NCBI GenBank assembly: GCA_016218575.1 | Contig: JACRDN010000019.1 | Span: forward strand, 332,302-396,301 | DNA length: 64,000 nucleotides | DNA from: Elusimicrobiota bacterium | GTDB lineage: Bacteria; Elusimicrobiota; Elusimicrobia; UBA1565; UBA9628 | Direction: 5' to 3' | Part shown: piece after piece, positions 4,549 through 35,015 of the stretch | Position numbering within the stretch: position 1 is the stretch's first letter | Layout: each line of letters opens with the position of its first letter | The notes under the pieces: generated by a model | Database searches by the model: none | The model's input: only the letters and a program-made list of their open reading frames with translations | What the model was told of the DNA's origin: nothing | Program-made: the position numbers and the translations under genes

Positions 4549-4651
4549 GATCCGAATTATGGCATAGGCTAAAACCCCCCGCCGGGTCCTTGGGCCTACT
4601 TTTGCGCCGGCAAAGGGCCTAGGTCCGGTTGGGGCGAAAGGCCCAAAAAGG

Positions 4652-7252
4652 ATGGGACTTAGGACCCTGTCTTGGGCCTGGAACTTCCTGTATCCTAAGG
4701 GCATGAAAATTTTGTTGAGCCTCGTCGCCTTGATCCAAGCCAATATTTTATGGGCGGAAGGGATCCGATTTTTAGAGCCTTTAGCTCGATCGGCCGGAAC
4801 CGATGTCGAAGCCGTTAAAAAGAATCTGGACCAAGCCCCCCCAGTCCCGGGCTCTCCGGCGGAGCTCTTCGTCCTCAAGGACGTCGGAGACGGCAAATAC
4901 CAGCTTGAGATCAAGGAGAGCCAACTGGAAAAGGATTTCCTGCTTTCCGCCACGTTGGAAAAGGGCACGGCTGAAGAATGGTTTTTCACAGGCGTGCCTC
5001 TCAACACCTATCTGTGGTATTTCCGTCAGATCCCGGGCTCGAAGGTCCAATTTATCCGCCGCAACACCGCCTACAGGGCCTCGGCCGGCACCCCGGAGGA
5101 GAAAGCCGTCCAAAATTCCTTTTCCGACTCCATCATAGCCACGTTGCCTATTCTCGCAAAGGACAGCGCCAGGAAAACTCTGACTTTATCCGCCAATGAG
5201 CTTTTCCTCGCGGACCTGGAGGACCTCGCCGGCGCTCTGGAAGCGCAGTATGGGAAGGTTATGCTCTCCAACAAGGACTCATTTATCCAAAAACTTCTCG
5301 CTTTCCCCAAGAACCTGGAAGCCTCGGTCCAGCTTAATTTCAAGGGGGCAGGGGGAGGCTCGAAGACCTTGCCGGATGCTCGCACCATCACGATTTTACT
5401 CCATTACAGCCTGGCGGTCCTGCCCGAGCCAAGCGCCTACCAAATCAGGCGCTCGGACTCCCGGGTCGGCTATTTCACCACCAGCTACCAGAATTTCAGC
5501 GACCCCGACCTCAAGAACAGCGTCACGCCCCAGACCAATCTCATCCATCGCTGGAATCTGCGCAAAAAGGACCCTCCGGCCCCGGTTTCGGAAACGGCCA
5601 ACCCCATAGTCTTTTGGCTGGAGGAGGCCATACCTCAGGAGTTTCGACCCGCGATCAAGGCCGGGATTTTGGCCTGGAACGAGGCTTTCGAGAGCCTGGG
5701 CTTTCGCAATGCCGTCATCGTCAAAGAAGTGGACAAGGACATGAGCCCGGAGGAGCGCCGGACTTTTAATCCGGCCAATGCCGCCTACAACATGGTGCGC
5801 TGGTATATGGGGGGCTTCAGCGGCGCCGTGGGTCCCAGCCGGGCCCAGCCCCTCACCGGAGAGATATTGAGCGGCTCCATTTTGGTCAGCGACATCGTGA
5901 CCCGTTTTTTGTCCGATGAACTGGATCTCGTGGCCCTGGCCGATGGAGCCGGGACGAGAAAAAATCCCCACGAGGGATACATGGTTCAATCCGTGCTCAG
6001 CGCCGCGGCTGGGCTGGCCATGCTCGAGGCCAAAGGCCCCGTGTCCGAAGCCGAGAGAAAGCGCTTCAAATATCAGTTCCTGTCCCACATCATGGCCCAT
6101 GAGATGGGACATGTCCTGGGCCTGCGCCACAATTTCAAAGGAAGCCAGCTTCTTCCCCAAGCCAGGCTGGGCCAAGACGGCGAGCTGACCTCCTCGGTCA
6201 TGGATTACCTGCCGGTCAATATCGCGGCTCTAGGCAAGACTGAAGGGACCTATTACCAGACAAAGATCGGGCCTTATGACCGCTGGGCCATTGAATACGG
6301 CTACTCCGAACTTTCGGGAGACGCCGCCGGCCAAGAGAGGCAGCTTAAAGCCATAGCGGCCAAATCCGGTTATGACTCGCGCCTGGCCTATGGGACCGAC
6401 GAGGACACCCACGGCATGGACCCGGACACCCAGCGCTTTGACCTTGGCAAAGACACGCTCGCCTTCGCGCATTCGCGTGCCCAACTGGCCCGCGGGCTCT
6501 GGCGATCCCTCGCCTCCCTTAAACCCTCTCAGGAGCGCGATTATCCCCAGTTGAGGCGGCTCTTCATGATGGGCTACGCGGAGTACTTTGGGGCGGCCAA
6601 CGCCGTTCCTCCCCTCATAGGGGGTGTCAGGGCCAGCCGCGTCAAAGCGGGAGAAGGGGGCGCTCCCTTTAAGCCGGTCACGGCCCAAGAGCAAAGGGCG
6701 GCCCTCAAATTCCTGGATGAAGAAGTTTTCAAGGCCGAGTCTTTTTCCGTTCCCCCGGAGCTTCTGCTGCGCCTGGGGGTTGAGCAGACGGGAGGTGGGG
6801 GCTCATTACCAGTGAATTTGGACGGCATGGTCTTGGGGCTGCAGCAAAACGTGCTTAACAAACTCTACAGCCGGGCAAGTCTTGAGCGCCTGGCCCAGCG
6901 GGAGCTTCTGGCCGGAGCCGGCGATCGCCTCTCCCTCCGGGATGTTTTTGAGTTCCTCCGGCGGTCCATTTGGAGAGAGATCGAGGGGCCCAAAGCGGCG
7001 GCCATCCCGCTTTTCCGCCGCAATCTCCAGCGCCGGCATCTGGACACCCTCATGGCCGTGATGGACAACCAGTCCCTCCCGGGAGACGCCCGCACCTCCG
7101 CGCGAAGCGATCTAAGCCGTTTGCAGTCGGCGGCTGAGAAAGCCCTCAAGGATCCCAAACTGGGCTCCACCGAGCGTGCCCACCTGGAAGACATACTCGG
7201 CCGCATAAAAAGGCAGATCTCGAAGCACGAGCGGGCGATCAAAGCGGCATAA
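4652..7252 (+). CDS. Secreted zinc metalloprotease, HExxH class (DUF4953/DUF5117-like)
   Basis: It has an HEMGHVLGLRHNF zincin motif and a downstream SSVMDYLP...YDRWAIEYGY segment typical of this uncharacterised secreted metalloprotease family. A signal-peptide-like MKILLSLVALIQANILWA begins at the internal ATG at 4703. The protein is 866 aa. Confidence 0.65.
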   Translation: MGLRTLSWAWNFLYPKGMKILLSLVALIQANILWAEGIRFLEPLARSAGTDVEAVKKNLDQAPPVPGSPAELFVLKDVGDGKYQLEIKESQLEKDFLLSATLEKGTAEEWFFTGVPLNTYLWYFRQIPGSKVQFIRRNTAYRASAGTPEEKAVQNSFSDSIIATLPILAKDSARKTLTLSANELFLADLEDLAGALEAQYGKVMLSNKDSFIQKLLAFPKNLEASVQLNFKGAGGGSKTLPDARTITILLHYSLAVLPEPSAYQIRRSDSRVGYFTTSYQNFSDPDLKNSVTPQTNLIHRWNLRKKDPPAPVSETANPIVFWLEEAIPQEFRPAIKAGILAWNEAFESLGFRNAVIVKEVDKDMSPEERRTFNPANAAYNMVRWYMGGFSGAVGPSRAQPLTGEILSGSILVSDIVTRFLSDELDLVALADGAGTRKNPHEGYMVQSVLSAAAGLAMLEAKGPVSEAERKRFKYQFLSHIMAHEMGHVLGLRHNFKGSQLLPQARLGQDGELTSSVMDYLPVNIAALGKTEGTYYQTKIGPYDRWAIEYGYSELSGDAAGQERQLKAIAAKSGYDSRLAYGTDEDTHGMDPDTQRFDLGKDTLAFAHSRAQLARGLWRSLASLKPSQERDYPQLRRLFMMGYAEYFGAANAVPPLIGGVRASRVKAGEGGAPFKPVTAQEQRAALKFLDEEVFKAESFSVPPELLLRLGVEQTGGGGSLPVNLDGMVLGLQQNVLNKLYSRASLERLAQRELLAGAGDRLSLRDVFEFLRRSIWREIEGPKAAAIPLFRRNLQRRHLDTLMAVMDNQSLPGDARTSARSDLSRLQSAAEKALKDPKLGSTERAHLEDILGRIKRQISKHERAIKAA

Positions 7253-10705: not shown

Positions 10706-11641
10706 CTACTCGCCGAATTTTTCCTTGAGGAGACGCAGGAACTTGTCGCGCTCGGATTCGCCGCCGCTGGGAAGGAAGGAGCCTAATTGCCGGGCCATGA
10801 CGGCCATCTGGGCGCGCAGTTGGGCCGCGGCCGAGGCTTCCTGGATATACTTCCGAAGTTCTTGGGAGCGCTGCTCCAAGGCCTTGAGGAGCTCCGCCCT
10901 CTCGGCTTGCAGGGAAGCGATGACTCGCTCTTGGGAAGAGGAGTGCTCGGCCGGGGACTGGGAGAGCTCTCTGGCTTCGGCCTTGAATTCCTTCAGGACT
11001 GCGGTTTGTTCGGCCATGCGGCTTTCGAGTCGAGAGAGAGTTTGGCCGAGGCCGGCCTTAAATTCTTCAAATTTCCGCGCGAGACTCGCCAGTTCCGATC
11101 CCAGATCCAGCTTGTCCTGGAGGGATCCCCGTTCCTTGGCCAAGGCCATGGCCCCGGCGATCTCGGCCTTGAGCGCGGCCTGCTCCTGCGCCAGAGTGGC
11201 CTGGGCGGCGCTCGCGGCCTGGGATTGGGCCTCCCTCTGGCTCAAGGATTCTTTTATTAAGGAGAGCCAGCTTTGGTGCATCTCGTCCAGGCGACGCTCC
11301 AAAGCGTCCACGCGCCCCCGGGCGTGGGCCTTGGTCTCCTCGCTTTCCCTCTCCAGTTTCTCGCGCCTGAGCTGGTCGGTGAGGGACTTGAGATGGGTTT
11401 CGACCTCTTGGCGTATGGCGTCCTGCTGTTTGAGAAGGTTTTGGGCCGACTGGGCGCGCTCGCGCTCCACCGCCAGCTCCCCCTCCAGGGCCTCCAAGCG
11501 CCTTTCCAGGAAGGACATCATCGGGGTCAAGGGCACGTAGGGAGGCTGGGGCGAGATGAGTTCGGCCGGAGGCGGGAGGGGAGGTTGCGATCGAGGTGGT
11601 GCCGGGATCTGGGGCTCGTCGCTGGGGTTGGACATGGTCAT
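10706..11641 (-). CDS. Proline-rich N-terminus plus long coiled-coil protein (hypothetical)
   Basis: The N-terminus is PQIPAPPRSQPPLPPPAELISPQPPYVPL, followed by about 250 aa of heptad-like, E/R/A/L/Q-rich sequence. Its start overlaps the upstream barrel gene by 4 bp. The antisense ORFs in this region have nonsense composition. Confidence 0.6.
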   Translation of the reverse strand: MTMSNPSDEPQIPAPPRSQPPLPPPAELISPQPPYVPLTPMMSFLERRLEALEGELAVERERAQSAQNLLKQQDAIRQEVETHLKSLTDQLRREKLERESEETKAHARGRVDALERRLDEMHQSWLSLIKESLSQREAQSQAASAAQATLAQEQAALKAEIAGAMALAKERGSLQDKLDLGSELASLARKFEEFKAGLGQTLSRLESRMAEQTAVLKEFKAEARELSQSPAEHSSSQERVIASLQAERAELLKALEQRSQELRKYIQEASAAAQLRAQMAVMARQLGSFLPSGGESERDKFLRLLKEKFGE

Positions 11642-22370: not shown

Positions 22371-22381
22371 ATCTGTGTGTT

Positions 22382-22468
22382 GGTGTCAGACTTTTAACTT
22401 TTGCAACTTATACAACTTATTAGGACTATAAAAGTTCAAAAAGTTGCAAAAGTTAAAAGTCTGACACC
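22382..22468. repeat. Perfect 28-bp inverted repeat (arms 22382-22409 and 22441-22468, 31-nt AT-rich spacer) between rpiB and tal-pgi
   Basis: The left arm is ggtgtcagacttttaacttttgcaactt and the right arm aagttgcaaaagttaaaagtctgacacc, an exact reverse complement. The element is about 30% GC in a 65%-GC genome. The right arm overlaps the last five codons and stop of rpiB. Confidence 0.8.
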
Positions 22469-22908
22469 AGTCGTTCTAAGGCGATGACTTTGTCGCGGCG
22501 GCGGACGTGGCGCTCCGCGTTGGAGAACCTGGCCTTGAGCCAGACCCTCACGATTTCAAGCGCAAGTTCCGGGCCGATCACCCGCGCGCCCAGGCAAAGG
22601 ATGTTGACATCGTCGTCCTCCACGCCCTGGCGCGCCGAGAAGGTGTCATGGCAGAGGCCGGCCCGCGCGCCGCGCACCTTGTTGGCCGCGACACAGGCGC
22701 CTACCCCGCTTCCGCAAATCATGATGCCGCGCTCGGCCTTGCCGGAGACCACGGCCAAGGCCACCGCCTTGGCGTAGTCGGGATAATCGGCGGGCTCGGG
22801 CCCGTCCACCCCGAGGTTCAAGATTGCGTGTCCCTCCTTGGGAAGGATTCCCTCGAGCCGCTTCTTGAGTTCGTAGCCGCCGTGGTCGGCGCCTAAAGCG
22901 ATCCGCAT
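22453..22908 (-). CDS. rpiB: Ribose-5-phosphate isomerase B
   Basis: MRIALGADHGGYELK...ICGSGVGACVAANK...ILCLGARVIG is the canonical RpiB/LacAB family sequence, about 150 aa. Confidence 0.9.
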   Translation of the reverse strand: MRIALGADHGGYELKKRLEGILPKEGHAILNLGVDGPEPADYPDYAKAVALAVVSGKAERGIMICGSGVGACVAANKVRGARAGLCHDTFSARQGVEDDDVNILCLGARVIGPELALEIVRVWLKARFSNAERHVRRRDKVIALERLVSDF

Positions 22909-23636: not shown

Positions 23637-24307
23637 CAGGGAGCCAGGGCCGGCCCCTTCTCTTTCTCGCCGAAAAGCCGGCGCAGGTTCTTTTCCAAGG
23701 CCTGGACCCAGGACAGGGCGCTTTCCCGCGCGGGCAGGGGCTGGCTTGGGTCCATGATCTTGCGGATCATGGCTTGAACCAGGTCGCGACGTGCGGCCAC
23801 GCTCTGGTTCAAGCGAATGCGGACCAAGGCCTCCCTCCCGGCCTGGGCCTCGGCGACGGAAACCTCGACCCGCCCAAGCACTAAGATGTCCCCGGGCTCC
23901 ACGGAGAGGGATTCATGGCGGTCAAGCTCCCTAGGAAACGGAAGCTGGTATTCCTGGCCTTGGGCCGAGATGCTCATGAGCGTTCGCCGGCCTCCGAAGA
24001 GCGAGCGCTCGGGGGCGAGGCGGTAAATCCCAGGCTCCACCTGGTAAAGATAGGACTGCCCCGGCTCCAAGGCGAGCCGGTAGATTTCGGAGCCGCTTTC
24101 CAGATTGAGGATGAATTTGCCGGAAGAGGCCTCCCCGGAGAGCTCCGTTGATATCTTGAGCCCGACCAGGAAGCCCCCGACGTTGCGGCTGGGCGGCTCG
24201 TGGAGCTCGGGGATGGTCCCGCGGCAGGCGGCGGCCAGACAGCAGAGGCTAATAATCCATTTGCCCGAGCTCAACGCCCTTGAAATACGCCTTGATGATT
24301 TCCTCAT
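23636..24307 (-). CDS. Hypothetical lipoprotein
   Basis: It has a lipoprotein-type signal peptide MRKSSRRISRALSSGKWIISLCCLAAAC and no recognisable catalytic motifs. It overlaps the upstream SpoIID gene by 59 nt. Confidence 0.5.
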   Translation of the reverse strand: MRKSSRRISRALSSGKWIISLCCLAAACRGTIPELHEPPSRNVGGFLVGLKISTELSGEASSGKFILNLESGSEIYRLALEPGQSYLYQVEPGIYRLAPERSLFGGRRTLMSISAQGQEYQLPFPRELDRHESLSVEPGDILVLGRVEVSVAEAQAGREALVRIRLNQSVAARRDLVQAMIRKIMDPSQPLPARESALSWVQALEKNLRRLFGEKEKGPALAP

Positions 24308-26282
24308 AGCTTTGTCCCGCCTCGGCCCGTCCCATGGCCCCGGATTGGCACAGCCCTACCGCGTGTCCCCAGCCCCCGCCGTGGAAAACCAAGGTCTCGG
24401 GCCTGGCGGCTCCCTTTTTGTACTCTGCGTCCACGATGAAGAGCGTGCTTCTCAAGGAGCCGATGCCGAGGAGATTGCGTATCTGCATCTCGGAATCTAT
24501 CTTGACCTTGCGCTGGGAGCCTTGGATCAGGATGGCGTTGACGTTTCCCGATGCGGAGCGGCGCAGGACCCGCAGGGAGAGAAGCTTGCCGGTCTTGTAG
24601 CGCCGGGCTATCTTCTCCTCAAGATCCTTGAAGGGGATGATCCGGGTCCAGCGGAAATGGGACGGGTGTGCGTAATTGGAGGGCTTGCAGAAGGCGGCGG
24701 GCCAGCCCAAAAGCCATCGTCTAAGCTCCCACGGAGAATCCACGGTTGCAGGCAGCCCCTGGCCGTCCGGGATGGAGGACCAGTACGAAACGTCTCCCCA
24801 GCCCGTGAGGTCGCTTCCGTTCTGGGTGTGCCCCCCGCAGTTGGAGGAATAAATGACATGGGCGACCTTGCCGTTGAAAACCGCGATGCGCCCGCGGGTG
24901 GCCTCCACGACCTCGCGGGAGCGCTGGCTCTCGGCGCGCACCCCGGCGTAGACCTGGCAATGCTGGTCGTCGCAGAGGTCGTAGCCCTCCCGGCGGTGGC
25001 GCCGGGAGATTTTTTGGATGAAAAGGGCGTGGCTTCTGGCGATCACGGCCTGGGCCTTCAGGGCCTCGAGCGGCGATCCGATGGGCATTTCGGCCGCCAC
25101 CACCCCGTGGGTGTAGTTCTCGAGATCGAGGGCGTTGACGATTCTAAGCCTCCCCTTGAACGGAGATATCTCGACGACACCGCGCAGGAGCTTGCCATCC
25201 ACCGCAATCAGGCCCTTGGGGCTCTGGGGCCTGACCACGACGGCTTGGCGCCTTTGGAGCATGGAGCGTCCCGAGGAATCATGGAGCGCTAGGAGCGCGC
25301 CTTTCTTGCCGCGCCTGATCCGCGCCTGCCAGGCCTCCCCGGTCTCGCCCTTCAGAAGTTTTTTGCCCGACGAGGCGTCCACGACCAAGAAGCTCGTCGT
25401 GGCCTCGAATTTAAGGAACTGCCGAGGCCTGGGCTTGCCCAACGCGGTGCTGCCGATGTTGATTCTGAGCTTGGGAACGCTCGCGCCCCCCGAGTCCGAG
25501 TCCACGATGTAGGGCTCGGGGCGGTGCAGGCCGGAGGGAGTGAGAATATCGGCGGGGCGGCGCGTCAAGCGCGGGCGGACTTTTTTGAGCCAGGCCGTAA
25601 AGCGCCGACTCAGGGGCTCGGCGTCCAGAATCTTCGAGAGTTGGCGCCAGGCTTGGTTGTAGTCCTTTTGCTTGAAATAGGCCCGGGCCAGGGGATCGCG
25701 GCCCTCAACGAAATAGGAGTCCGCCAGCACCGCGCGGCGGTAGGCCTCGGAGGCCTTGGCGGTGTTCCCCATCTTCTCGGAGGCCTGACCCTGGTAATAG
25801 GAGACGAGGTTGAGAAGGGGTGCGGCGGCCTGGGCCTTGTCGAGAGCCTCCAGGGCTTTCTTCGGGAGCCCCAAGTCGAGCTCGGCTCGCGCTAGTCCCA
25901 GCCACGCGTAAGCCGCCTCGGGGTCGCGCCGCGCGGCCTCGTAAAGCGCGGCGGAGGCCCCCTCGAAGTCCCCGGCCCGCCAGCGGGCCCAGCCCATGGC
26001 GGTGAGGACTTCGGGCTCCTCGGCGGATATCCTCGCGGCCCGGCGGAACCACTCCGCGGCTTTCTTGGGGTTGCCCAGCTCTTCTAGGACCACGCCCCCG
26101 TTGAGCCAGGCCTTCACTGTGGTCGAGCTTTCCTCGAGCGCCTTGCCGTAGCGGTCCAGGGCCTTGGGCTGCTGGCCTTGAAAATAGAAAGCGTTGCCTT
26201 GGGCGACGAGTTCGTCGGCGGAGGCGTCGGCGCGAGGGCTCAGGGTAAACAGCAGCGCCGCCCCGAGCAGGAAATTTCGCAT
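24249..26282 (-). CDS. TPR-repeat plus SpoIID/LytB-domain protein
   Basis: It has a signal peptide and N-terminal TPR-like repeats. The C-terminal domain has GYDLCDDQHCQVY and HGGGWGHAVGLCQSGA, the SpoIID/LytB (amidase-enhancer) hallmarks. Confidence 0.8.
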   Translation of the reverse strand: MRNFLLGAALLFTLSPRADASADELVAQGNAFYFQGQQPKALDRYGKALEESSTTVKAWLNGGVVLEELGNPKKAAEWFRRAARISAEEPEVLTAMGWARWRAGDFEGASAALYEAARRDPEAAYAWLGLARAELDLGLPKKALEALDKAQAAAPLLNLVSYYQGQASEKMGNTAKASEAYRRAVLADSYFVEGRDPLARAYFKQKDYNQAWRQLSKILDAEPLSRRFTAWLKKVRPRLTRRPADILTPSGLHRPEPYIVDSDSGGASVPKLRINIGSTALGKPRPRQFLKFEATTSFLVVDASSGKKLLKGETGEAWQARIRRGKKGALLALHDSSGRSMLQRRQAVVVRPQSPKGLIAVDGKLLRGVVEISPFKGRLRIVNALDLENYTHGVVAAEMPIGSPLEALKAQAVIARSHALFIQKISRRHRREGYDLCDDQHCQVYAGVRAESQRSREVVEATRGRIAVFNGKVAHVIYSSNCGGHTQNGSDLTGWGDVSYWSSIPDGQGLPATVDSPWELRRWLLGWPAAFCKPSNYAHPSHFRWTRIIPFKDLEEKIARRYKTGKLLSLRVLRRSASGNVNAILIQGSQRKVKIDSEMQIRNLLGIGSLRSTLFIVDAEYKKGAARPETLVFHGGGWGHAVGLCQSGAMGRAEAGQSYEEIIKAYFKGVELGQMDY

Positions 26283-26331
26283 TGACGGCAGCTAGTCTAG
26301 CAAAAACGCCGTAGCGCTTGGGCCTATGCGC

Positions 26332-27096
26332 TCATAAACGCCCGAGCTCCTTCTTGAGCTGATTGGGGAGCTGTTGGATGATAGCCCAATGGCTCTTAGG
26401 CAGGAAAGCCTTGAGTTCGTTGTAGAGGAACTTCTTGTCGACCGCCTCAAGCCTTTCTAAGACCTGCTTGCGCCGCGCCGCGATCGACTTCCTTTCCCCC
26501 ATCGGCTTGCGCAGGATGAAGTAGAGGTCGTAGAAGTCCCGTGGCTTGGCGCGCGAGAGAAGTGCGTCGACCTTCTCGTCAACGAGCAATTTCTCCGGCA
26601 GGCCGTAGACGTTGTAGTTCGGCACGAGGCCCGACGTAACCACGGAGAGCTCTCCCTTAAGGGGCTTCTGGCGCGTGGAGGCCTGCAGGAGGATCTCGAT
26701 CTCCCACGGTCCCATGGGGCCGCGCACGATGCCGAAGTAGCCGCCGCTCGTGGGCTTGGACTCGACGAGCGCCAGGCCTGAGATCTCCTGGGCGACGCGC
26801 TCGGCCGTCCGCTCGATCACGGCTTGCGTCTTGTGAAACGGCATGGCCGCGGTGAAGTCGAGGTCCTCGGAGAAGCGCGGGCTCTGGTAGACGATTCGCA
26901 GGGAGGTCCCGCCCTTGAACATAAGGCCGTCCGAGGCTGGGTCCGCGTACAGATGGGAGAGGAATACGTTCTGCGCGTACTCGCGCGCGACATTTTCATC
27001 GGTCGTGTGGAATTTTACCGCGAGCTGCTTGATCTCATCTGCCGATAGCATGGCCCACCCAGGAGAGGAAGGTCTTAGGCTTGAATAGGCGCGCAT
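26332..27096 (-). CDS. AbiEii/AbiGii-family nucleotidyltransferase toxin (DUF1814, type IV TA)
   Basis: LMFKGGTSL...RFSEDLDF is the NTase signature of AbiEii. A possible shorter start lies at 27051 (MLSADEIK). It is paired with the upstream AbiEi. Confidence 0.75.
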   Translation of the reverse strand: MRAYSSLRPSSPGWAMLSADEIKQLAVKFHTTDENVAREYAQNVFLSHLYADPASDGLMFKGGTSLRIVYQSPRFSEDLDFTAAMPFHKTQAVIERTAERVAQEISGLALVESKPTSGGYFGIVRGPMGPWEIEILLQASTRQKPLKGELSVVTSGLVPNYNVYGLPEKLLVDEKVDALLSRAKPRDFYDLYFILRKPMGERKSIAARRKQVLERLEAVDKKFLYNELKAFLPKSHWAIIQQLPNQLKKELGRL

Positions 27097-27625
27097 GCTG
27101 GAGAAGCTTCTTGCGGTCCACCTTTTTCCAGGCGATGCGCTCGTTGAGAGCCCGTTTCTTAAGGAACACTAGGAACAGGTAGTCGCACAGCGCTTTCTCG
27201 GGCTCGGCCATCAGCACCAGCTCGTCGCCGACTTTGCAGGGACGGTAGCCGGTGAAAGCCTCCTTCTTGATGGAATGGTACACGTAGCCGAAGTCGTCGG
27301 TCTCGATCTCCTTGGTGCGGCGCGTGGTGGCGGAGGTCACGGCATAGACCGTCTCGGGGATCAGGTGGTAATGCGCCAAGGCGCTCTCGTAGGAGATGTA
27401 GGACGGGCGATAGAGGGCGTTGGCGATCGCCATAGCCCCCGGCTTGCTCCAGGGCAGGCAATAGAGTCCGTTTCTGAGGCGGACGACGGCGCCCTGCCTG
27501 CTGCAGCGCTCGAGCGTCTTATAAGCGGTGGGCAAAGATAGCCCGAGCGTCCGCCGGAAGTCGGCGGTCGTGAAGAGACGGAGGCCCTTTTGGGCCAGCT
27601 TTTTCTGAATATTGAGTGCAGTCAT
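27035..27625 (-). CDS. AbiEi-family antitoxin / transcriptional regulator
   Basis: It has a wHTH-like N-terminus (FTTADFRRTLGLSLPTAYKTLERCSRQGAVVRLRNGLY) and a C-terminal PSYISYESALAHYHLIPE region typical of AbiEi_4 antitoxins. It overlaps the AbiEii gene. Confidence 0.7.
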   Translation of the reverse strand: MTALNIQKKLAQKGLRLFTTADFRRTLGLSLPTAYKTLERCSRQGAVVRLRNGLYCLPWSKPGAMAIANALYRPSYISYESALAHYHLIPETVYAVTSATTRRTKEIETDDFGYVYHSIKKEAFTGYRPCKVGDELVLMAEPEKALCDYLFLVFLKKRALNERIAWKKVDRKKLLQHARLFKPKTFLSWVGHAIGR

Positions 27626-27843
27626 GATTCGTACAATTGTGTACAGAAACCTGCTACGCTCATTTTAACAGGTCCGGGCTCCCGTTTCAAGGCGCAGAAG
27701 AACCCTGTAGGAGCCTTTAATCGAAAAACCTATTTGAGTATTCGGACCTCGGAGCCGTTTTTAGGCTCTTTTTTGGGCCCTTTGGGAGGTATTGCGTGAC
27801 GCTGAAGTTCGCCGATTTGTCGACGAGAATCGGGTGTGAAATC

Positions 27844-27917
27844 TGGAGCGGGCGATGGGAATCGAACCCACGTCCGAAGCTTGGGAAGCTTCTATTCTAC
27901 CATTGAACTACGCCCGC
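27844..27917 (-). tRNA. tRNA-Gly(CCC)
   Basis: The minus-strand sequence GCGGGCG-TA-GTTC-AATGGTA-GAAT-A-GAAGC-TTCCCAA-GCTTC-GGAC-GTGGG-TTCGATT-CCCAT-CGCCCGC-T-CCA folds into a cloverleaf. The acceptor stem is a perfect 7 bp. The anticodon loop TTCCCAA gives anticodon CCC. The T-loop is TTCGATT and CCA is encoded. Confidence 0.85.
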
Positions 27918-28877
27918 TAAGGACTGCAGAGCCCTCATTTTAGCGGGATTGAGGCCTTGCGTCAAGGCCGGTTCTTTGGAGAAGGGCAGGGTCAAAGCGA
28001 ACTCCTCGCTCCACTGGTACTCCGGCTTCTTGAAATCATGGCGCACCTTCAGTTTCACCAGGTACGAGTTCTGTTCGTTTAATTCCTGGTAGAGCGGTAT
28101 CAATAAGACGTTGCGCGGCAGATTGGCGAGATCCCTCTTGCCTTTGACCATGCCGAAAGCCATGGAGCTGCCGGCGGGAATCCTCTGGGCCTCGTACTGG
28201 ATGTCGGAGATCATTTTCTTGTCCAAGACCTCCGGCTTGATGGAGACGGACATGATTCCTTTTCCGCTTTCCTTGTCGTTGTAGGCCCGGAAAACCATGT
28301 TGTCTTGGATGAAGCGGAGCAGTTCTTCATCGGGTTTCGGAGCCGGCGGGGTCGGGTCGGGCCTGCCTTCTCCCTTGGCCAGTTGGAACACGTAGGAATC
28401 GGGCATTTCCCGGTTTTGGAAGCGGTGAACCGGGGGTTCCTGATAGCTGTAATGGGAGGACTTTACCTCCGCGGCGTAGGCATCGTAGCGGGAGAAGGGA
28501 TTTCCCGCGCCATGGTGGTAGGTGAGCTTGATCTCCTCGCTCTGTCCTTCCCGCAAGGCGGCATCGGCCGGGAATTGGAGCGCGACCTTCACCGGCTTCT
28601 CGTAGTCCCGGTACTCGTAGTCCCGGCAAACTCTCGTGGGATAACAGTATTGATGGCAGTGCCAATGGCATCCGCCGTGGGGGGCCGGAAGGCAGGAGCA
28701 ATGCTCGCGGCATTCGGTCTCCCAATGGCATCTCGTTTCGATTCGATAGACCCATAGCTTTAAATCGAACTCAACGCGGTCCTGGCCGGTGCGGCGCGCG
28801 GCGCTAAACTCATCGGCCCGGGCGTTCCCTGTCAATAGAGCGCAGAACAGTCCGGCGCAGGCAATTAGGTTTTTCAT
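27897..28877 (-). CDS. Cys/His-rich secreted hypothetical protein
   Basis: The start is set at the ATG at 28877, preceded by aggataaaa (SD), giving a signal peptide MKNLIACAGLFCALLTGNARA. A cluster CHWETECREHCSCLPAPHGGCHWHCHQYCYP suggests metal or disulfide binding. The 3' end overlaps the tRNA 5' end by 21 nt. Confidence 0.55.
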   Translation of the reverse strand: MKNLIACAGLFCALLTGNARADEFSAARRTGQDRVEFDLKLWVYRIETRCHWETECREHCSCLPAPHGGCHWHCHQYCYPTRVCRDYEYRDYEKPVKVALQFPADAALREGQSEEIKLTYHHGAGNPFSRYDAYAAEVKSSHYSYQEPPVHRFQNREMPDSYVFQLAKGEGRPDPTPPAPKPDEELLRFIQDNMVFRAYNDKESGKGIMSVSIKPEVLDKKMISDIQYEAQRIPAGSSMAFGMVKGKRDLANLPRNVLLIPLYQELNEQNSYLVKLKVRHDFKKPEYQWSEEFALTLPFSKEPALTQGLNPAKMRALQSLAGVVQW

Positions 28878-29059
28878 TTTTATCCTCGCGAGATAACCAA
28901 TCTGATGATATTCAAGCCCCGCTGTCAATGGAAAATGCTCGCTAGTCCTACGTTTGAAATAGGCCCTTCGACCCATGACAGTGTTGACGCGGCCGCCCTA
29001 AAACTGGTATTTGTATTTCACCGCGAATTATTCGATAAATCGCCGCATTGGGGGACGCT

Positions 29060-29671
29060 ATGGACACTCTGCAATTCGTGACGCGCTGGCTGCATGTCAT
29101 CGCCGGGATCACCTGGATCGGCCATCTTTATTTCTTCAACTTCGTCAACGTCCCCCTCCAGGCGGCCTTGGACGACGCGGGGAAAAAAGCCGTGAACCCC
29201 AAGCTCATGCCCCGCGCTTTGTGGTGGTTCCGTTGGGGCGCCATGCTCACCTTCCTGACCGGACTCCTGCTCTTTTCCCTCATCTATATGTATTTGCCGG
29301 GCGCGGGCTTCGGGCCAAACGCGCTGTTTCATGACGAGATGGGGCTGACCGACCGCGCCTCTTGGATCATGCTCGGCATGCTTTTTGGAAGCGTCATGTG
29401 GTTCAATGTCTGGTTCATCATCTGGCCCATCCAGAAAAAAATCCTCTCCGGCAAGGCGACCCCCGAGGAGTTGCCGGTGATCCGCCGCCGGGCCTACCTT
29501 GCTTCCCGCGCCAACACCTATCTCTCCGGGCCCATGCTCCTGGGGATGCTCGCCGCCAACCACATGACGGCTGGCTACACGGTGGGAGGGCTCCTGATCT
29601 GGTCCGCTTTGGCTCTCGCCGTCGTCTGGGTTGCGATCTTCCACGCCGACCGCGTGGGAACCTCGGTTTAA
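29060..29671 (+). CDS. Polytopic membrane protein (HemJ/CopD-like, uncertain family)
   Basis: There are 4-5 TM helices. The N-terminal motif RWLHVIAGITWIGHLYFFNFV (a conserved His in TM1) resembles HemJ/CopD-type heme/copper-handling membrane proteins. The ATG at 29060 is preferred over the TTG at 29048. Confidence 0.5.
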   Translation: MDTLQFVTRWLHVIAGITWIGHLYFFNFVNVPLQAALDDAGKKAVNPKLMPRALWWFRWGAMLTFLTGLLLFSLIYMYLPGAGFGPNALFHDEMGLTDRASWIMLGMLFGSVMWFNVWFIIWPIQKKILSGKATPEELPVIRRRAYLASRANTYLSGPMLLGMLAANHMTAGYTVGGLLIWSALALAVVWVAIFHADRVGTSV

Positions 29672-29693
29672 CACAAGTTTAGAACAGAAAAAT

Positions 29694-29722
29694 CCCTGCA
29701 TTTTAATATGCAGGGGTTTTCT
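29694..29722 (+). terminator. Rho-independent terminator
   Basis: ccctgcat-tttaat-atgcaggg is an 8-bp GC-rich stem with a 6-nt loop, followed by gttttct. It is preceded by aaaaat, so it could work in either direction. It lies 22 nt after the stop of the 29060-29671 gene. Confidence 0.6.
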
Positions 29723-29835
29723 ATTCTAGCGTCTGATGATCAAGGAGTTTTAGCGAGCTCCAAGTCGCCAACCGCGCTGATGTTTGTATTGGTTGCGGTC
29801 AACTATACGGTTCATCCGAGAAACGGGAGAAGAAT

Positions 29836-30372
29836 TTGATCAGTTATCTATCAACAGTCCCTTGCGTCAATGTCATCGTGTTGGCAACCTTATTTTGTGG
29901 TGCCTGCCAGCATGAATCCCCAAGTCAACGCTTTAAGTCCATGAAACTATATTCTGAAGTTAAGATCGGACCGGCTGTTGATAGTCGAACAAGAGAAGGC
30001 AAAAGGATTGCACTGATTATTCATCCCCGGCAGTTGAAGTCCAAGGACGAAGGGAATGAGCAGTGCAAGTTGTTCGCAATGCCGCACGATGTAGTGTTGG
30101 TGGAAGATGTCCATGAACTTGTGAGAATAGAAGTCAAGTATTTGGGGGAGATGATCAGCCTGGTCAATCTGCCGGATGAGAAAGGATTTCGAGCAGTGTA
30201 TGCGTATGACAGCGACTCCGGCTCAGAATCCACGACCCTGGAATATGCCGGCCAATTGGCCGCCGATAAAGTGTCCGGACATGCTTCAATGAACGTGGAT
30301 GAGCTTGGCAAGCGCTGCGCTATAACTTTTTCATTCAATGAACGCTTGCCATCTGTGAAGAACGAAAAGTGA
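29836..30372 (+). CDS. AT-rich ORFan, putative lipoprotein (likely horizontally acquired)
   Basis: The ORF is about 45% GC against a 65% background. It has a TTG start with a gggagaag SD 5 nt upstream and a signal peptide ISYLSTVPCVNVIVLATLFCGAC. I recognise no homology to any family. Confidence 0.45.
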   Translation: MISYLSTVPCVNVIVLATLFCGACQHESPSQRFKSMKLYSEVKIGPAVDSRTREGKRIALIIHPRQLKSKDEGNEQCKLFAMPHDVVLVEDVHELVRIEVKYLGEMISLVNLPDEKGFRAVYAYDSDSGSESTTLEYAGQLAADKVSGHASMNVDELGKRCAITFSFNERLPSVKNEK

Positions 30373-30420
30373 ATGTCCCGGAGCGCGGGGGATGAAAAGC
30401 AGGCCTTCTGCCTGGCGTTT

Positions 30421-30948
30421 TTAATTGATCAGGTTCAGGAACTCCTCGCGGGTGCGGGGGTCCTTTTGGAAGCAGCCGAGCATGGAGCTCGTGACCGTCG
30501 GGGAAAGCAGGCTCTCGGCCCCGCGCATCTCCATGCAGAGGTGGCGGGCCTGGATCACGACGCCCACGCCCAAGGGCTTGAGCTTTTGGCTTAGGATCGC
30601 GGCGATTTGATTGGTCATGCGCTCCTGGACCTGGAGTCGGCGGGCGAAGATGTCCACGATCTTCGGAAGCTTCGAAAGGCCGATGATTTTCTTGTCCGGG
30701 ATGTAAGCCACGTGGGCTTTGCCGAAGAAGGGCAGGAGGTGGTGCTCGCAGAGGCTGAAGAAGGTGATGTCTTTGACCAGGACCATCTCGTTGTAGGCCT
30801 CGGTAAACAGCGCGTCGTTGATGATCTTATCGACGTCGGCGCGGTAGCCGGCGGTGAGCTCCCGCAGGGCCTTGGCCACGCGTTGGGGGGTTTTTACGAG
30901 CCCCTCGCGCTCCGGGTCCTCCCCGAGCTCGGCCAGGATGCGGAGCAT
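30421..30948 (-). CDS. folE: GTP cyclohydrolase I
   Basis: [13 protein letters not shown]...[22 protein letters not shown]...QERMT is canonical FolE. The start is trimmed to [12 protein letters not shown] (ATG at 30948); the longer ORF would overlap pepA. Confidence 0.85.
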
Positions 30949-30971
30949 TCCCTCCGCGATCGGGTCCGGCT

Positions 30972-32417
30972 TCACAGGGCCGCGAGGTATTCGATTAAGG
31001 TGCGCACCATAGAGCCGGTCCCGCCCGCCGGGCAGTAGGCCGAAGGGGCGTCGGTCCACGCGGTGCCCGCGATGTCCAAATGGACCCAGGCGGCGCCGTC
31101 CACGAACTCCTGGAGGAAGAGCCCGCCGATGATGCTTCCGGCCTCCCCCCGCGCCTTGCCGATGTTCTGGAGGTCGGCGATCGAGCTCTTGATCTGGTCC
31201 TTGTAGTCCTTGACCAAGGGCAGCTCACAGACGGCCTCCTGGGTCTTGGCCGAGGCGGCCAAAAGCTGGCGCAGAAGTGCTGGATTGTTGGTCATGGCTC
31301 CCGTCACCTTGGAGCCCAAGGCCGTGACCACCGCTCCGGTGAGGGTCGCCAGGTCAATCAAGGCGTCGAGCTTCTGGCGGCTGGCGTAGGCCAAAGCGTC
31401 GGCCAGGATAAGGCGCCCCTCCGCGTCGGTGTTCAAGACCTCGATGGTTTTCCCGTTCATGGCCTTGATCACGTCCCCGGGCTTCATGGCGTCGGGTCCG
31501 GGCATGTTGTAGGTGAAGGCGCAGAAGCCGTGCACCTCGGCGCGGGCCTTGAGGCGCGGCAGAACCTTGAAGACGGCGAGGACCGAGGCGGCCCCGGCCA
31601 TGTCCATCTTCATGGTCTCCATGTGCTGCGGGGGCTTGAGGCTCAGGCCCCCCGAGTCGAAGGTGATGCCCTTGCCCACCAACCCCAGGCGCTTGCGCGC
31701 CGGGCCTTGGGGCTTGTAAACCAGATGGACGAAGGCCGGCTCATGGGCGCTGCCCCGGGCCACCCCGAGGAAGGAGCCCATGCCGAGCTCCTGGGCCTTG
31801 GCCCGAGAGATGACGCTGACCTTGATCCCGGAGCCGTCCAGGGACTTGGCGATTTCCGCCATGGCCTGCGGGGTCTTGTCCGAGGGCCCGCGGTTGACGA
31901 GATCCCTGGCCAGGCACACCGCCTCGGCGTGGAGCGCGGCCTTGGAGAGAGCCTTCTCGAAGCCGTTCTTTTCCGCGGCTTGCGCGGCGATGAAAACCGC
32001 CTCGGAGAGCTTCTCCTCCTCGCCCTTCTTGTATTCGAGGAAGCGGTAGGAGGCCAAAATCAGGCCCTCGGCCGCGGCTTGAGGATTGTCAGCGGGGAAC
32101 ACCGCGATGCGGGCAAAGCGCCCCTTGGCGTAGTGGAAGAGGCCCGCGGCGGCCCGGCGCAAAGCCTCGGCGTCGTAGTCCCCCTTTTTTCCAAGGCCGA
32201 CCAAGATGAGCTTTCCAAAGTTCGGCGAGGAGAACGAGGCGCAGTCGCCCAGTCCCCCTTTGAAGCCGTCGGCCTTGGCCTGGTCCAGAACGGCCTTGCG
32301 CTGGGCCGGGAGAACGGGCTTGGCTCCGGCGATGGGGCCCTCCTCAAAACAAAAAAGTGCCGTCGGGAGTTCGCTGCCTTTGAGAGAAGACTGGAGTGCT
32401 GTCGTCAATTTGATCAT
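30972..32417 (-). CDS. pepA: Leucyl aminopeptidase (M17)
   Basis: [17 protein letters not shown] is the M17 signature, with [11 protein letters not shown] and a metal-binding MKMDMAGAA. Confidence 0.85.
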
Positions 32418-33115
32418 GGTTTAGTTCCTGGTGTGGATTCAAGAAAAAAATTTTCATGCAGGAGGGAAGCGGCCGCGGCCCCGGCCAGGGGGCCGATCCA
32501 ATAGACGAACCAATTCTCCCAGCGCCCGGTCGCCACCGCCGGCCCGAAGGCCCGGGCCGGGTTCAAGGCCGCGCCCGTGAGGGGCCCGATCGCGAGGGTT
32601 CCGAGAGAGACGGCCAGGCCGGCGGCCAGGGGGGCCGTGCCGGAAAATCCCCGGCAGTCCACGCTGGTGGCGTAAATGACGGAGACGAGAAAGAAAGTCA
32701 TCACCGCCTCGAGCAAGGTCCCCCCCTTGAACCCGATTCCCACAAGCCCCATGCTTCCCAAGAAAGGGGATGTGTTGGCCACATGCGGGTAGGCCTGCAG
32801 GGAGGAGGCGAGCAAAAGGCCGGCTAGGGAGGCGCCCAGAAGCTGGCAGATGACATAGAACACCCCCTTGACCGCGTCCATTCTCCGGTTGATGAGCATG
32901 GCCGCGGTCACGGCCGGGTTGAAATGGGCTCCGGAGATGGGGGCGTAGGCGTAGGACATGGCCGTGATCGCCAATCCGTGGGCCAAGGCGATTCCGGTAA
33001 GCCCCACTTTCCCTCCGGTGGCCGCGTCCATGCACACCGAGCCCGCCCCGACGAATACCAAGGCGAAGGTGCCGATAATCTCGGCCAAATACGACTTCAG
33101 GCTCCCTGTCACCAT
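32414..33115 (-). CDS. aqpZ: Aquaporin (MIP family)
   Basis: Two NPA boxes (HFNPAVT and ALNPARAFGPA), six TM helices, 233 aa. Confidence 0.85.
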   Translation of the reverse strand: MVTGSLKSYLAEIIGTFALVFVGAGSVCMDAATGGKVGLTGIALAHGLAITAMSYAYAPISGAHFNPAVTAAMLINRRMDAVKGVFYVICQLLGASLAGLLLASSLQAYPHVANTSPFLGSMGLVGIGFKGGTLLEAVMTFFLVSVIYATSVDCRGFSGTAPLAAGLAVSLGTLAIGPLTGAALNPARAFGPAVATGRWENWFVYWIGPLAGAAAASLLHENFFLESTPGTKP

Positions 33116-33125
33116 GGGAATGCTA

Positions 33126-35015
33126 TCAAATGGACAGGGCCTTGGCCAGAAGTAGAAGGCGGCGGGATGTTTCTTTTCGTGCTTCCGTCCGTTCTGGAGG
33201 AAGGTGCAGCCCGGCCGTGGTTTTCCGTTCCTTGAGCTGGGCCTGGTAGCTCTCGATCAAGGGCTTGAGGCGCTTGAGCCAGACCTGCCCCCGGCCCCGG
33301 TCGGGCCGTGTCGGGGACTCGCTCATCCTGATCGCCGCCGCCAGGGCGGACCGCCAGGCCCGCATCTCTTTGCCGTTGAGCCACTCGTGGTCGCTTTCAA
33401 GGAAGACAATCATTTCCTGGGCATGCCGTGCCAGCGCTTGCAGCAGGGGGCGATCTTGCGCCCTGGACCAGAGGCGCGCGGCGAGAGAATCGCGCAGTCT
33501 GCGGATGGCCGCCTCTTCCTCGGCGACAAGGTAGTTGTCGAGGATGATGGCGGCTATATCCTCCGTTTGACTGGCGAGCTCCCCCGCGGTTTCGGGAGAG
33601 AGGCGGGTATTCCGGATGCTTTTTCGCAAGGCGACGAATTCCGCGTAGCGCGTGTTGGACTCGTACATGCGAGCGGCAAGTCTGGAAAGAAACTCCTCCA
33701 AATCCTCCCATAGGGAGCTCCGATCGTCTTTGCGCGCCGCGAGCCTGGCGGTCAATCCCTCTCGGGCGCGCTCGGCTTGGGGAGTCAAGGCCAGGTAGGC
33801 CAGGCCCAGATCCCGAAACAGGGCGTCCTTCTCGCCCTTTTCATCGCGCAGAAAAGGGCTCGCGTAGAACACCAGGTTTTCCGCGGCCTCGGCGTACTCC
33901 ACGATCTGGGAAGGGATCATTCCCCGTCCCTGGTTTGCCTCGACGATATCCGCGGCTTGCCTTCTGGCTGCGCCATGGAGTTCTTGAAGGGCGCGGCTTA
34001 GGGCCGCGGCTCTCTCGGGGCTCGCTTCGAATTCTTCCGGAGAGGCGAAGGTGATCTGGAGCCGGCTGGCGACGTAGCCCAAGGTATTCGCCCCGGGGTT
34101 TTTTAAGAAATTCACCTCAAGCAGAGCTTGGGCGAGAGCATGCGCGGGATACTCCGGGCCTATGAGCGCAAGGGCCTCCGCCACGGCTTTCCTCCATTCC
34201 TGGCGGCGCGGCAGCCGCCGGGGCTTCCAAGATCGCTCCGGCTTGCTTGCGTCCCGGGGCTTTAGAAGGCCGGCCAGGCCGATGGATTTCGGGAAGGGCT
34301 CGCGCCGGGATCTGGGGCTTTCCGGCTCGATGGGGGCGCTGGCCTCCGGCGCGGGCGCCATAGAGCCCAAGGCCGCGGCGGTCCGGCTCATCTCGGCCGA
34401 CAATGCAGAGCCTTTTTTGAGCGATCTCTCGATCTTCTGGGCGAAAGACAGGGCGGATTCGATTCCTTTTCCGTACGGAGCGAGAAGCGCCAAAGTCTCG
34501 ACGGCCTCCTCGAGCTCCTCCAAGTCCCGCGCCGAGGACGGCACCGGTCTCTCGAAGCGCTTGCGGATGTTGTCCATCACTTCCAAGGTCTTTGCTTCCA
34601 CGTCCTCCTCCGCCCTTTTTCTGGCCCCGGAAATGGCTTCGAGCATGGATCGGGCCACGATCATTTTTACGTCCACGATTTCCGTTCCCGCGAGGCGATC
34701 GGCGCATTCGAGCATGAACTCCTCTTTGAGGTAAGGCTCCAGCGGCTTGAGGGCCATGTCCGCCCTTGTCGCGTCGGGCCACCGCACCTTCAGTTGAGCC
34801 ACGAAGTCCAGGGCGGGAGTGCCCCGTATCGGGTCAAGCAGCCGCTGCGCCTCGGCCGAGTCCAGAAAGGTCTTTAAGGTGGAGATGGTTCTGGACAGAT
34901 AGAGCCGGGGAAAATCAAATTTCAGGGGACCGGCCAGGCGCTCTCCCCCCAAGTTTGCGAAGGCGGCGGCGGAACTGGTCAGCGCCAGGACGGCGGCCAG
35001 GAAGAGCCTTCTCAT
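33126..35015 (-). CDS. Large alpha-helical secreted hypothetical protein
   Basis: It has a signal peptide MRRLFLAAVLALTSSAAAFA, is 629 aa and Ala/Leu/Arg/Glu-rich, and has no catalytic motif I recognise. Confidence 0.5.
   Translation of the reverse strand: MRRLFLAAVLALTSSAAAFANLGGERLAGPLKFDFPRLYLSRTISTLKTFLDSAEAQRLLDPIRGTPALDFVAQLKVRWPDATRADMALKPLEPYLKEEFMLECADRLAGTEIVDVKMIVARSMLEAISGARKRAEEDVEAKTLEVMDNIRKRFERPVPSSARDLEELEEAVETLALLAPYGKGIESALSFAQKIERSLKKGSALSAEMSRTAAALGSMAPAPEASAPIEPESPRSRREPFPKSIGLAGLLKPRDASKPERSWKPRRLPRRQEWRKAVAEALALIGPEYPAHALAQALLEVNFLKNPGANTLGYVASRLQITFASPEEFEASPERAAALSRALQELHGAARRQAADIVEANQGRGMIPSQIVEYAEAAENLVFYASPFLRDEKGEKDALFRDLGLAYLALTPQAERAREGLTARLAARKDDRSSLWEDLEEFLSRLAARMYESNTRYAEFVALRKSIRNTRLSPETAGELASQTEDIAAIILDNYLVAEEEAAIRRLRDSLAARLWSRAQDRPLLQALARHAQEMIVFLESDHEWLNGKEMRAWRSALAAAIRMSESPTRPDRGRGQVWLKRLKPLIESYQAQLKERKTTAGLHLPPERTEARKETSRRLLLLAKALSI

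Follow-up and report, generated by a model that had tools for sequence, protein, structure and literature searches.

In a 64-kb stretch of genomic DNA from an uncultured Elusimicrobia bacterium (contig JACRDN010000019.1; the whole stretch is referred to below as the window), a tRNA-Gly(CCC) gene (27844-27917, minus strand) is surrounded by genes that have no counterpart at the corresponding positions in related genomes. On its 3' side lies an abiEi-abiEii toxin-antitoxin (TA) operon, on its 5' side a gene for a secreted protein whose stop codon falls inside the tRNA, and, beyond a conserved gene for a PuuD-like membrane protein, a short segment of low guanine-plus-cytosine (GC) content that carries an orphan open reading frame (ORF), here called the ORFan. 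The original prediction had taken the entire patch for the remains of one decayed island integrated at the tRNA, and had left the PuuD-like gene in its middle unnamed. Comparison with relatives instead resolves the patch into three separate blocks set into a conserved backbone.

The backbone is anchored on the left by a gene encoding a SpoIID-TPR protein (24249-26282, minus strand; PF08486 plus TPR families) and on the right by folE, encoding GTP cyclohydrolase I (30421-31059, minus strand; PF01227, E 4e-75), and its order is RpiB, BadF-like, hypothetical gene, SpoIID-TPR, tRNA-Gly(CCC), PuuD-like membrane protein, (zf-CDGSH), FolE, PepA. We mapped homology between the window and four related loci by blastn and tblastn: L019, which came from scans with the SpoIID-TPR protein, and L021, L022, and L023, which carry the nearest homologues of the PuuD-like protein. 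In L021, the genes run TAL/PGI, RpiB, BadF-like, hypothetical, SpoIID (minus), 11 nt, tRNA-Gly(CCC) (minus), 125 nt, PuuD-like (plus), a 246-aa gene, and zf-CDGSH; in L022, SpoIID (minus), radical-SAM/B12 (minus), tRNA-Gly(CCC) (minus), 61 nt, PuuD-like (plus), zf-CDGSH (plus), FolE (minus), PepA (minus), CCA-adding enzyme, and AMP-binding enzyme. L023 carries PepA, FolE, PuuD-like, zf-CDGSH, and tRNA-Gly(CCC), all on one strand, and in L019 the tRNA lies 431 nt upstream of the SpoIID homologue, with an unrelated 91-aa ORF on the opposite strand (1326-1601, no family match) between them. A SpoIID homologue thus sits downstream of the tRNA in L021, L022, and L019, and the PuuD-like gene adjoins the tRNA in L021 and L022 and is one gene (zf-CDGSH) away in L023. 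The tRNA of the window, identified by ARAGORN and Rfam (RF00005, 68.7 bits), is 92-94% identical to those of L021, L022, and L023 in the same neighbourhood and belongs to the backbone, as does FolE, which is 74-75% identical to its L022 and L023 homologues and is likewise accompanied by PepA there. The SpoIID-TPR protein is 52-53% identical to its homologues in L021 and L022 and 45% identical to that in L019.

Homology to these relatives is limited to SpoIID (up to 26208), the tRNA (27839-27920), the PuuD-like gene (29050-29661), and FolE/PepA (from 30422). AbiEi, AbiEii, the 326-aa secreted protein, and the ORFan have no counterpart in any of the four loci by blastn or tblastn, which bears out the earlier description of these genes as accessory, and neither the gene order nor the GC dip of the patch is conserved in the relatives. 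The DNA specific to the window forms block 1 (26283-27843, 1.56 kb), block 2 (27974-29049, about 1.08 kb), and block 3 (29672-30420, 0.75 kb, 44-47% GC), which are separated from one another by the conserved tRNA and PuuD-like gene, a pair only 61-125 nt apart in L021 and L022. The blocks also differ in composition. Measured against a background of 39 genes (GC 63.7 ± 2.0%; GC at third codon positions, GC3, 80 ± 4.4%; mean GC of the window, 62.9%), the AbiE genes are native-like, the secreted-protein gene has a slightly reduced GC content, and the ORFan stands out as strongly foreign. The GC and tetranucleotide analysis that had been proposed as a check marks the ORFan block as foreign but not the AbiE block.

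Block 1 comprises the abiE operon with its own promoter region and occupies the space between the 3' end of the tRNA and the SpoIID gene. The first gene, abiEi (27035-27625, minus strand), encodes a predicted antitoxin and repressor of 196 aa with an N-terminal winged helix-turn-helix (wHTH) and a C-terminal domain; it is followed on the same strand, with a 17-nt overlap, by abiEii (26332-27051, or to 27096 with an upstream ATG), encoding a DUF1814 nucleotidyltransferase (NTase) toxin, and the two genes are presumably co-transcribed. The pair begins 218 nt downstream of the tRNA 3' end, on the side originally described, and its proposed identity as an NTase toxin with a helix-turn-helix antitoxin is confirmed by hidden Markov models (HMMs). 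AbiEii matches PF08843 (E 9e-22, 78.6 bits against a cut-off of 22.5, profile positions 2-212 of 238) and 28 PADLOC AbiEii models (best E 5e-27). Because the PADLOC models begin at residue 16 of the longer ORF, ATG 27051, giving a protein of 239 aa, is favoured as the start over ATG 27096 (254 aa). AbiEi matches PF13338 (AbiEi_4; E 7e-7, 29.7 bits against a cut-off of 25, residues 8-58) and the PADLOC AbiEi model (E 5e-38, residues 32-190); its score against the NCBIfam equivalog TAA_AbiEi (NF047376; E 1.6e-11, 44 bits) is below the 150-bit cut-off and hence marks it as a divergent member of the family. The two genes form a genuine AbiE module, which looks intact, since both proteins match models at full length.

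All four NTase motifs are present in the AbiEii translation, so the absence that was to refute the original call is not observed. With residues numbered from the methionine at 27051, motif I corresponds to FKG47G48, motif II to R59-FSE-D63-L-D65, motif III to K160-x6-R167, and motif IV to R171-D172-FY-D175 (RDFYD). In the characterized systems, motifs I (hG[G/S]), II (R...DhD), III (K...R), and IV (+DxxD) were found by mutagenesis to be required for toxicity (Dy et al. 2014; PMC3985639). The closest solved structures are those of a DUF1814 protein (4o8s/4ok0, E 4e-4) and, marginally, MenT4 (6y56, E 0.21); the alignments to both 4o8s and 6y56 cover motifs I and II, and that to 4o8s also covers motif IV. 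The GC3 values of abiEii (0.84, codon-fit z +0.2) and abiEi (0.82) are native-like, so the operon has either resided here for a long time or come from a donor of similar GC content. A search for clues to such a donor among plasmid-borne relatives of AbiEii was uninformative, with matches of 25-31% identity by tblastn from scattered taxa.

In its layout, the operon resembles the AbiE systems of Streptococcus agalactiae and Lactococcus, which are likewise bicistronic, with the antitoxin gene first, overlapping genes, and a sigma-70-like promoter shortly upstream (PMC3985639). The domain content also corresponds, with an AbiEi_4 wHTH and a C-terminal domain in AbiEi, and in AbiEii a DUF1814/PF08843 protein with motifs I-IV, including the family-specific arginine of motif II and the +DxxD of motif IV. 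The differences are that sequence identity to characterized systems is low (that same 25-31% to plasmid-borne AbiEii, and an AbiEi under the equivalog cut-off), that the genes overlap by 17 nt rather than 4 nt, that no 23-bp inverted-repeat operators are evident, and that the host is an uncultured Elusimicrobia bacterium. A candidate abiE promoter, TTGAAA-17-TAAAAT with an extended TG (27662-27690, minus strand), matches the consensus at 10 of 12 positions. Around it, at 27668-27768, are short repeats and imperfect inverted repeats, with 13-nt arms that are 77% complementary and GGAGCC/GGCTCC hexamers, which could serve as an operator. The DNA that separates abiEi from the tRNA also holds, on the plus strand at 27751-27769, a hairpin that resembles a terminator and has a T-run behind it (GGAGCCGTTTTTAGGCTCT TTTTTGG); no plausible plus-strand gene lies upstream of it, and it overlaps the GGAGCC repeats, possible half-sites for AbiEi.

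AbiE has been described as a type IV TA system with GTP binding and inverted-repeat operators (PMC3985639), and the related MenT toxins of Mycobacterium tuberculosis are described as modifying tRNA (PMC7450476, PMC10435456). By analogy with these families, free AbiEii may bind a nucleoside triphosphate and add nucleotides to tRNA acceptor ends, which would stall translation and growth and so lead to abortive infection or stasis. AbiEi would repress the operon via its N-terminal wHTH and neutralize the toxin via its C-terminal domain. Neutralization might proceed without a classical tight complex, possibly by inducing auto-phosphorylation of the toxin as in MenA3/MenT3 (PMC11375011). The window's pair shares with MenAT (MenA3/MenT3, MenT4) the DUF1814 NTase fold family and a COG5340/AbiEi-type antitoxin, as MenA3 is; the FKGGTSLR...RFSxDLDF segment of AbiEii aligns to MenT4 (6y56), and after the GG of motif I comes a Thr/Ser, at the place that holds the phospho-acceptors in MenT toxins. 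The match to MenT4 is only marginal, however, and shared tRNA targets, nucleotide specificity, or auto-phosphorylation would be analogy only.

The 3' side of the tRNA, which the abiE operon occupies in the window, is unusually variable, with four different states in the four genomes compared. The 3' CCA of tRNA-Gly(CCC) is encoded in the window and in L019, L022, and L023; in L021 (9805-9876) it is not, and the SpoIID start codon follows 11 nt further on. On its 5' side, the tRNA is preceded by what appears to be its ancestral promoter (27937-27973, minus strand; TTGACG-17-TAAAAT at 27965-27937, 10 of 12 matches in a promoter scan). Within it, a 36-nt block (27973-27938) is identical at 29 of 36 positions (81%) to the DNA upstream of the tRNA in L021, where this DNA is intergenic. 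In the window, the same DNA lies inside the tail of the secreted-protein ORF.

The secreted protein (P0001; 27897-28877, minus strand; MBI5631169.1 in the source metagenome-assembled genome (MAG), locus tags HY921_) is encoded in block 2, which contains its gene and upstream region between the tRNA promoter and the PuuD-like gene. The longest form of the ORF spans 27897-28976 (359 aa); the likely start is ATG 28877 (MKNLIA..., preceded by the Shine-Dalgarno (SD) sequence GAGGA), which agrees with the NCBI call and yields 326 aa. The protein has a typical Sec signal peptide, MKNLIACAGLFCALLTGNARA, ending in ARA, with cleavage before DE. Its stop codon at 27897-27899 produces the 21-nt overlap with the 5' end of the tRNA that had been noted at the outset. 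For roughly the last 25 codons, the reading frame runs through the ancestral tRNA promoter, the leader, and the initial 18 nt of the tRNA before it meets TAG, which gives the C-terminal tail ...TQGLNPAKMRALQSLAGVVQW. The overlap can thus be explained by an insertion junction that put the secreted-protein frame into the tRNA promoter and the tRNA. A consequence would be that RNase P, in cutting at the tRNA 5' end, strips the stop codon from a read-through transcript of the gene.

Among 5.8e9 proteins searched, the only match to the secreted protein is itself. An exhaustive HMMER search adds one other cluster (P0123, partial), with a full-length member of 326 aa (P0124; MDE2038658.1/MDE2426419.1), both from other Elusimicrobia MAGs; the protein therefore is a member of what appears, from these searches, to be a very small, Elusimicrobia-restricted family. 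P0124 also has a signal peptide and is 39% identical to the window protein over residues 19-297 (E 5e-54). Beyond residue 297, which corresponds to window position 27987, the two sequences are no longer homologous, and their tails are unrelated. P0124 differs further in its genomic context, with adh_short-like and HEAT-repeat neighbours and no tRNA beside it. At the loci L028 (10001-14257), L029, L030, and L024, this homologue of the secreted protein is always followed by a gene for a protein of 960-1056 aa that matches HEAT_2 or DUF3626 weakly, and an AAA ATPase comes after that; the three may form a conserved neighbourhood. The copy in the window was not found to have these partners beside it. 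Neither Pfam, NCBIfam, PADLOC, nor PHROGs offers a family match for the secreted protein, and a scan of viral contigs returned no viral relative. Its gene has a GC content of 0.573 (z -3.1) and a GC3 of 0.74 (z -1.4). We regard it as cargo and as a real, expressed extracytoplasmic protein.

The earlier description of this protein as secreted and Cys/His-rich holds for the signal peptide, but the richness is confined to a cluster of 35 residues (50-84) with 8 Cys and 6 His, the 8 being all the cysteines of the mature protein. In the AlphaFold2 (AF2) single-sequence model, this stretch forms a long beta-hairpin with a predicted local distance difference test (pLDDT) score of about 80, with the rest below 50. 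Only two of the cysteines align in P0124, which has a Trp-rich segment there instead, and the cluster is hence not a conserved family feature. We considered whether it could stand in for the zf-CDGSH protein missing from the window and rejected this: there is no match to PF09360, the family with the CxC...CDG[SAT]H motif, even at E <= 10, only noise (E >= 1.5) results when the three neighbouring zf-CDGSH proteins are compared with the secreted protein by BLASTP, and an iron-sulfur protein is unlikely to be routed through a Sec-type signal peptide. A haem site was rejected as well, since neither the single CX3CH string nor most of the Cys and His residues are conserved in P0124.

The gene to the right of block 2, where homology to the relatives restarts at 29050, encodes the PuuD-like membrane protein (29060-29671, plus strand; 203 aa; MBI5631170.1), which contains a Urate_ox_N domain only (PF06181, E 4e-25). 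With 7818 homologues at E <= 1e-10, the nearest 80% identical, a GC3 of 0.83, and the syntenic positions described above, it belongs to the conserved backbone rather than to the cargo. Synteny is lost in homologues at 69-71% identity (P0016, P0036, P0018). More distant homologues of this short protein lie beside cytochrome c genes (L026 7175-8627, L027 2404-3694, and the DCF104Sa locus), one of them beside a full aa3-type cytochrome oxidase operon; these neighbours suggest a respiratory or haem-related role rather than the urate oxidation that the NCBI name implies. In L022 and L023, the PuuD-like gene is followed by the small 2Fe-2S protein gene zf-CDGSH (4492-4716 and 2717-2956, respectively), with a 4-nt overlap between the two genes in L022, and in L021 zf-CDGSH (11350-11598) is two genes away. 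No zf-CDGSH protein is encoded anywhere in the 64-kb window. Homology by blastn to L022 and L023 breaks at 29661 and restarts at 30422-30427, and block 3 with the ORFan lies in the place of the zf-CDGSH gene.

Block 3 begins with a strong hairpin (29679-29729, core stem 29694-29715) that the original prediction had recognized as a terminator. It folds at -24.8 kcal/mol (z -6.7), a stability reached by none of 200 shuffles, and, since an A-run precedes it and a T-run follows it, could act as a terminator on either strand. Rfam (E <= 1), applied to the spacers and the low-GC block, returned the tRNA only, plus spurious miRNA-like matches to an unrelated hairpin. The ORFan itself (29836-30372, plus strand) has 178 codons from a TTG with the SD sequence GGAG and a 6-nt spacer, or 143 codons from an internal ATG. 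Its GC content of 0.473 lies strongly below the gene mean of 0.637 ± 0.020 (z -8.0; codon fit z -5.7), although the deficit is about 16 points at 47% GC and not the 20 points at 45% first estimated. GC3 is 0.52 against 0.80 (z -6.3), and the 750-nt window at 29751 is the most deviant in tetranucleotide composition of all 64 kb (z 4.2). The reading of the ORFan as a lipoprotein is not supported by its N-terminus (MISYLSTVPCVNVIVLATLFCGACQ): neither Lys nor Arg precedes the hydrophobic stretch, and the translation shows no canonical lipobox ([LVI][ASTVI][GAS]C), the candidates being CGAC and TLFC. Four HMM libraries (Pfam, NCBIfam, PADLOC, PHROGs) contain no matching family, and there is no phage or plasmid relative by tblastn and no relative on viral contigs. 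We regard the ORFan as recently transferred from a low-GC donor, and it is probably a gene.

We consider it likely, at a probability of roughly 70%, that the lineage acquired these blocks in three separate small gains of genes, independent of each other and without an integrase, rather than as one decayed island, and that the backbone around them is conserved. The first would have brought an intact abiEi-abiEii operon directly 3' of the tRNA. The second would have put a gene whose product is secreted by the Sec route immediately 5' of the tRNA promoter, with the frame now running through the promoter and stopping 21 nt inside the tRNA, and the third would have replaced the zf-CDGSH gene with a 0.75-kb low-GC segment carrying a terminator and an orphan ORF.

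Several observations weigh against this interpretation, in whole or in part. The relatives are distant (45-53% identity for SpoIID, 76-80% for the PuuD-like protein, 74-75% for FolE), and the collections searched hold no closer genome; scans of genome and metagenome contigs with the SpoIID-TPR protein yield relatives at no more than 61% identity, and exact-protein look-ups of AbiEii, the ORFan, and P0003 returned no match, probably since gene callers chose other starts. Because of this distance, the choice between gain here and loss elsewhere is based on parsimony and composition rather than on a true empty site in a sister strain. That the AbiE genes have native-like codon usage fits old residence as well as it fits a donor of similar GC content. 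No convincing long inverted-repeat operator was found by the abiE promoter, and nothing like the 11-23-bp IR1/IR2 of S. agalactiae; toxicity of AbiEii, its neutralization by AbiEi, and protection from phage are functions predicted from family membership only. The AF2 single-sequence models of the secreted protein (pLDDT 43) and of the ORFan (pLDDT 31) are unusable. Finally, the NCBI annotation has no gene at the ORFan, and an ORF of its length is just moderately unlikely in the block under a dinucleotide model (Markov-1 simulations, p ~0.009).

These last points bear on whether the 178-codon ORF is a gene at all. Block 3 could alternatively be noncoding foreign DNA or a decayed remnant that supplies terminators for the convergent PuuD-like and folE genes. 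In addition to the missing NCBI call, the poor model, and an ORF length reached in 0.9% of the Markov-1 simulations, this alternative draws on the lack of a homologue in any library or collection searched; the sole database match is the ORFan itself (P0002), as a 143-aa call from the internal ATG by Logan's gene caller. On the other hand, the ORF covers 72% of the block, its TTG start is preceded by an SD sequence with a 6-nt spacer, and the order GC1 > GC3 > GC2 (0.53/0.37/0.52 for GC1/2/3) is the coding-like pattern expected of a sequence of about 47% GC. Its length is also improbable under mononucleotide shuffling (p 0.0002), and the block has no Rfam family match. We therefore find a noncoding block 3 conceivable but doubtful.

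A second alternative is differential loss, in which the AbiE operon, the secreted-protein gene, or both were ancestral and disappeared from L021, L022, and L023, so that the ORFan alone was acquired. The fully native-like GC3 and codon fit of the AbiE genes are consistent with such a history, as are the many changes accumulated between these distant relatives and the presence of a secreted-protein homologue in other Elusimicrobia. That homologue, however, lies in an unrelated context with no tRNA beside it, and homology to it ends 14 nt short of the promoter block, whose counterpart in L021 is intergenic DNA, as would be expected at an insertion junction. Loss would also require several independent replacements, given that the slot 3' of the tRNA is unrelated in L022 and L019 and measures just 11 nt in L021. 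Taken together, we judge loss in the relatives to be unlikely.

A more speculative extension, to which we assign a low probability, is that in this Elusimicrobia clade both flanks of tRNA-Gly(CCC) act as an integrase-independent insertion hotspot that time and again captures single cassettes with defence or accessory genes. The captures would be AbiE in the window, the radical-SAM gene in L022, and in L019 an SMC/PtuA-like ATPase together with a small ORF. In one of them, the secreted-protein ORF would have become fused to the tRNA promoter and the 5' end of the tRNA, and removal of the mRNA stop codon by RNase P would then tie expression of the secreted protein to tRNA maturation and non-stop rescue. 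The L019 gene in question (30-1070), which lies 5' of the tRNA, may be a defence gene: its product is an SMC_N/RecF-like ATPase that matches PtuA weakly and ends in a Cys-rich tail resembling a zinc ribbon.

The single island of the original prediction would have entered at the tRNA 3' end and since lost its integrase and attachment (att) sites, with the three gene sets as leftover cargo. As in integrase islands linked to tRNAs, there are accessory genes immediately 3' of the tRNA, where integration classically occurs, and the contents of this slot vary among relatives, differing in all four genomes compared; the absence of all three gene sets from the relatives and the low intergenic GC (0.44-0.49) would also be compatible with such an island. 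Unlike in those islands, the insert is a single 1.5-kb operon, and the other private genes lie 5' of the tRNA and beyond a conserved gene. The main ORFs between 18.4 and 39.5 kb encode no integrase, recombinase, or transposase domain, in agreement with the earlier remark that no integrase remains, and no remnant of one is detectable. The direct repeat of the tRNA 3' end by which the island was to be delimited is missing: these 26 nt have no second copy in the 64 kb even when up to 3 mismatches are allowed, and a search for direct and inverted repeats from 22 to 32 kb revealed no att repeat or target-site duplication. Local alignments of the tRNA 3' half with the private blocks, and of the junction neighbourhoods with each other, do not exceed those of shuffled sequences. 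Because one insertion at the tRNA 3' end cannot place genes 5' of the tRNA or past the PuuD-like gene, and given three compositional signatures in blocks interleaved with two genes that are neighbours in L021 and L022, we consider a single island very unlikely.

Private changes are also found away from the tRNA. In the window, PepA and the CCA-adding enzyme are separated by a MIP aquaporin gene (32414-33115) and a gene for a 629-aa protein without a family match (33126-35015). In L022, the CCA-adding enzyme directly follows PepA and is itself followed by the AMP-binding enzyme, which makes the two genes a further lineage-specific insertion. In the spacer between RpiB and TAL/PGI, there is an AT-rich hairpin (22381-22469) whose 38-nt arms are 92% complementary and enclose a 13-nt loop. 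It occurs once in the window, and its matches in Rfam are miRNA-like and sub-threshold only. The two genes overlap by 4 nt in L021, so the hairpin is a private insertion, either an element resembling a miniature inverted-repeat transposable element or a terminator. Such private insertions and deletions away from the tRNA mean that small-scale gene flux is common at this evolutionary distance.

This locus leaves the current view of AbiE and island biology unchanged. It does illustrate that a TA pair by a tRNA, accompanied by ORFans, need not be a decayed island, and that comparison with relatives can resolve such a patch into separate small gains. The secreted-protein ORF that ends in the tRNA provides a small, clear case of a C-terminus built from formerly noncoding and tRNA sequence. 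For the Elusimicrobia, a phylum with almost no cultured members, the locus adds a divergent but, by its sequence, complete AbiE module to a sparse inventory of defence and TA systems.

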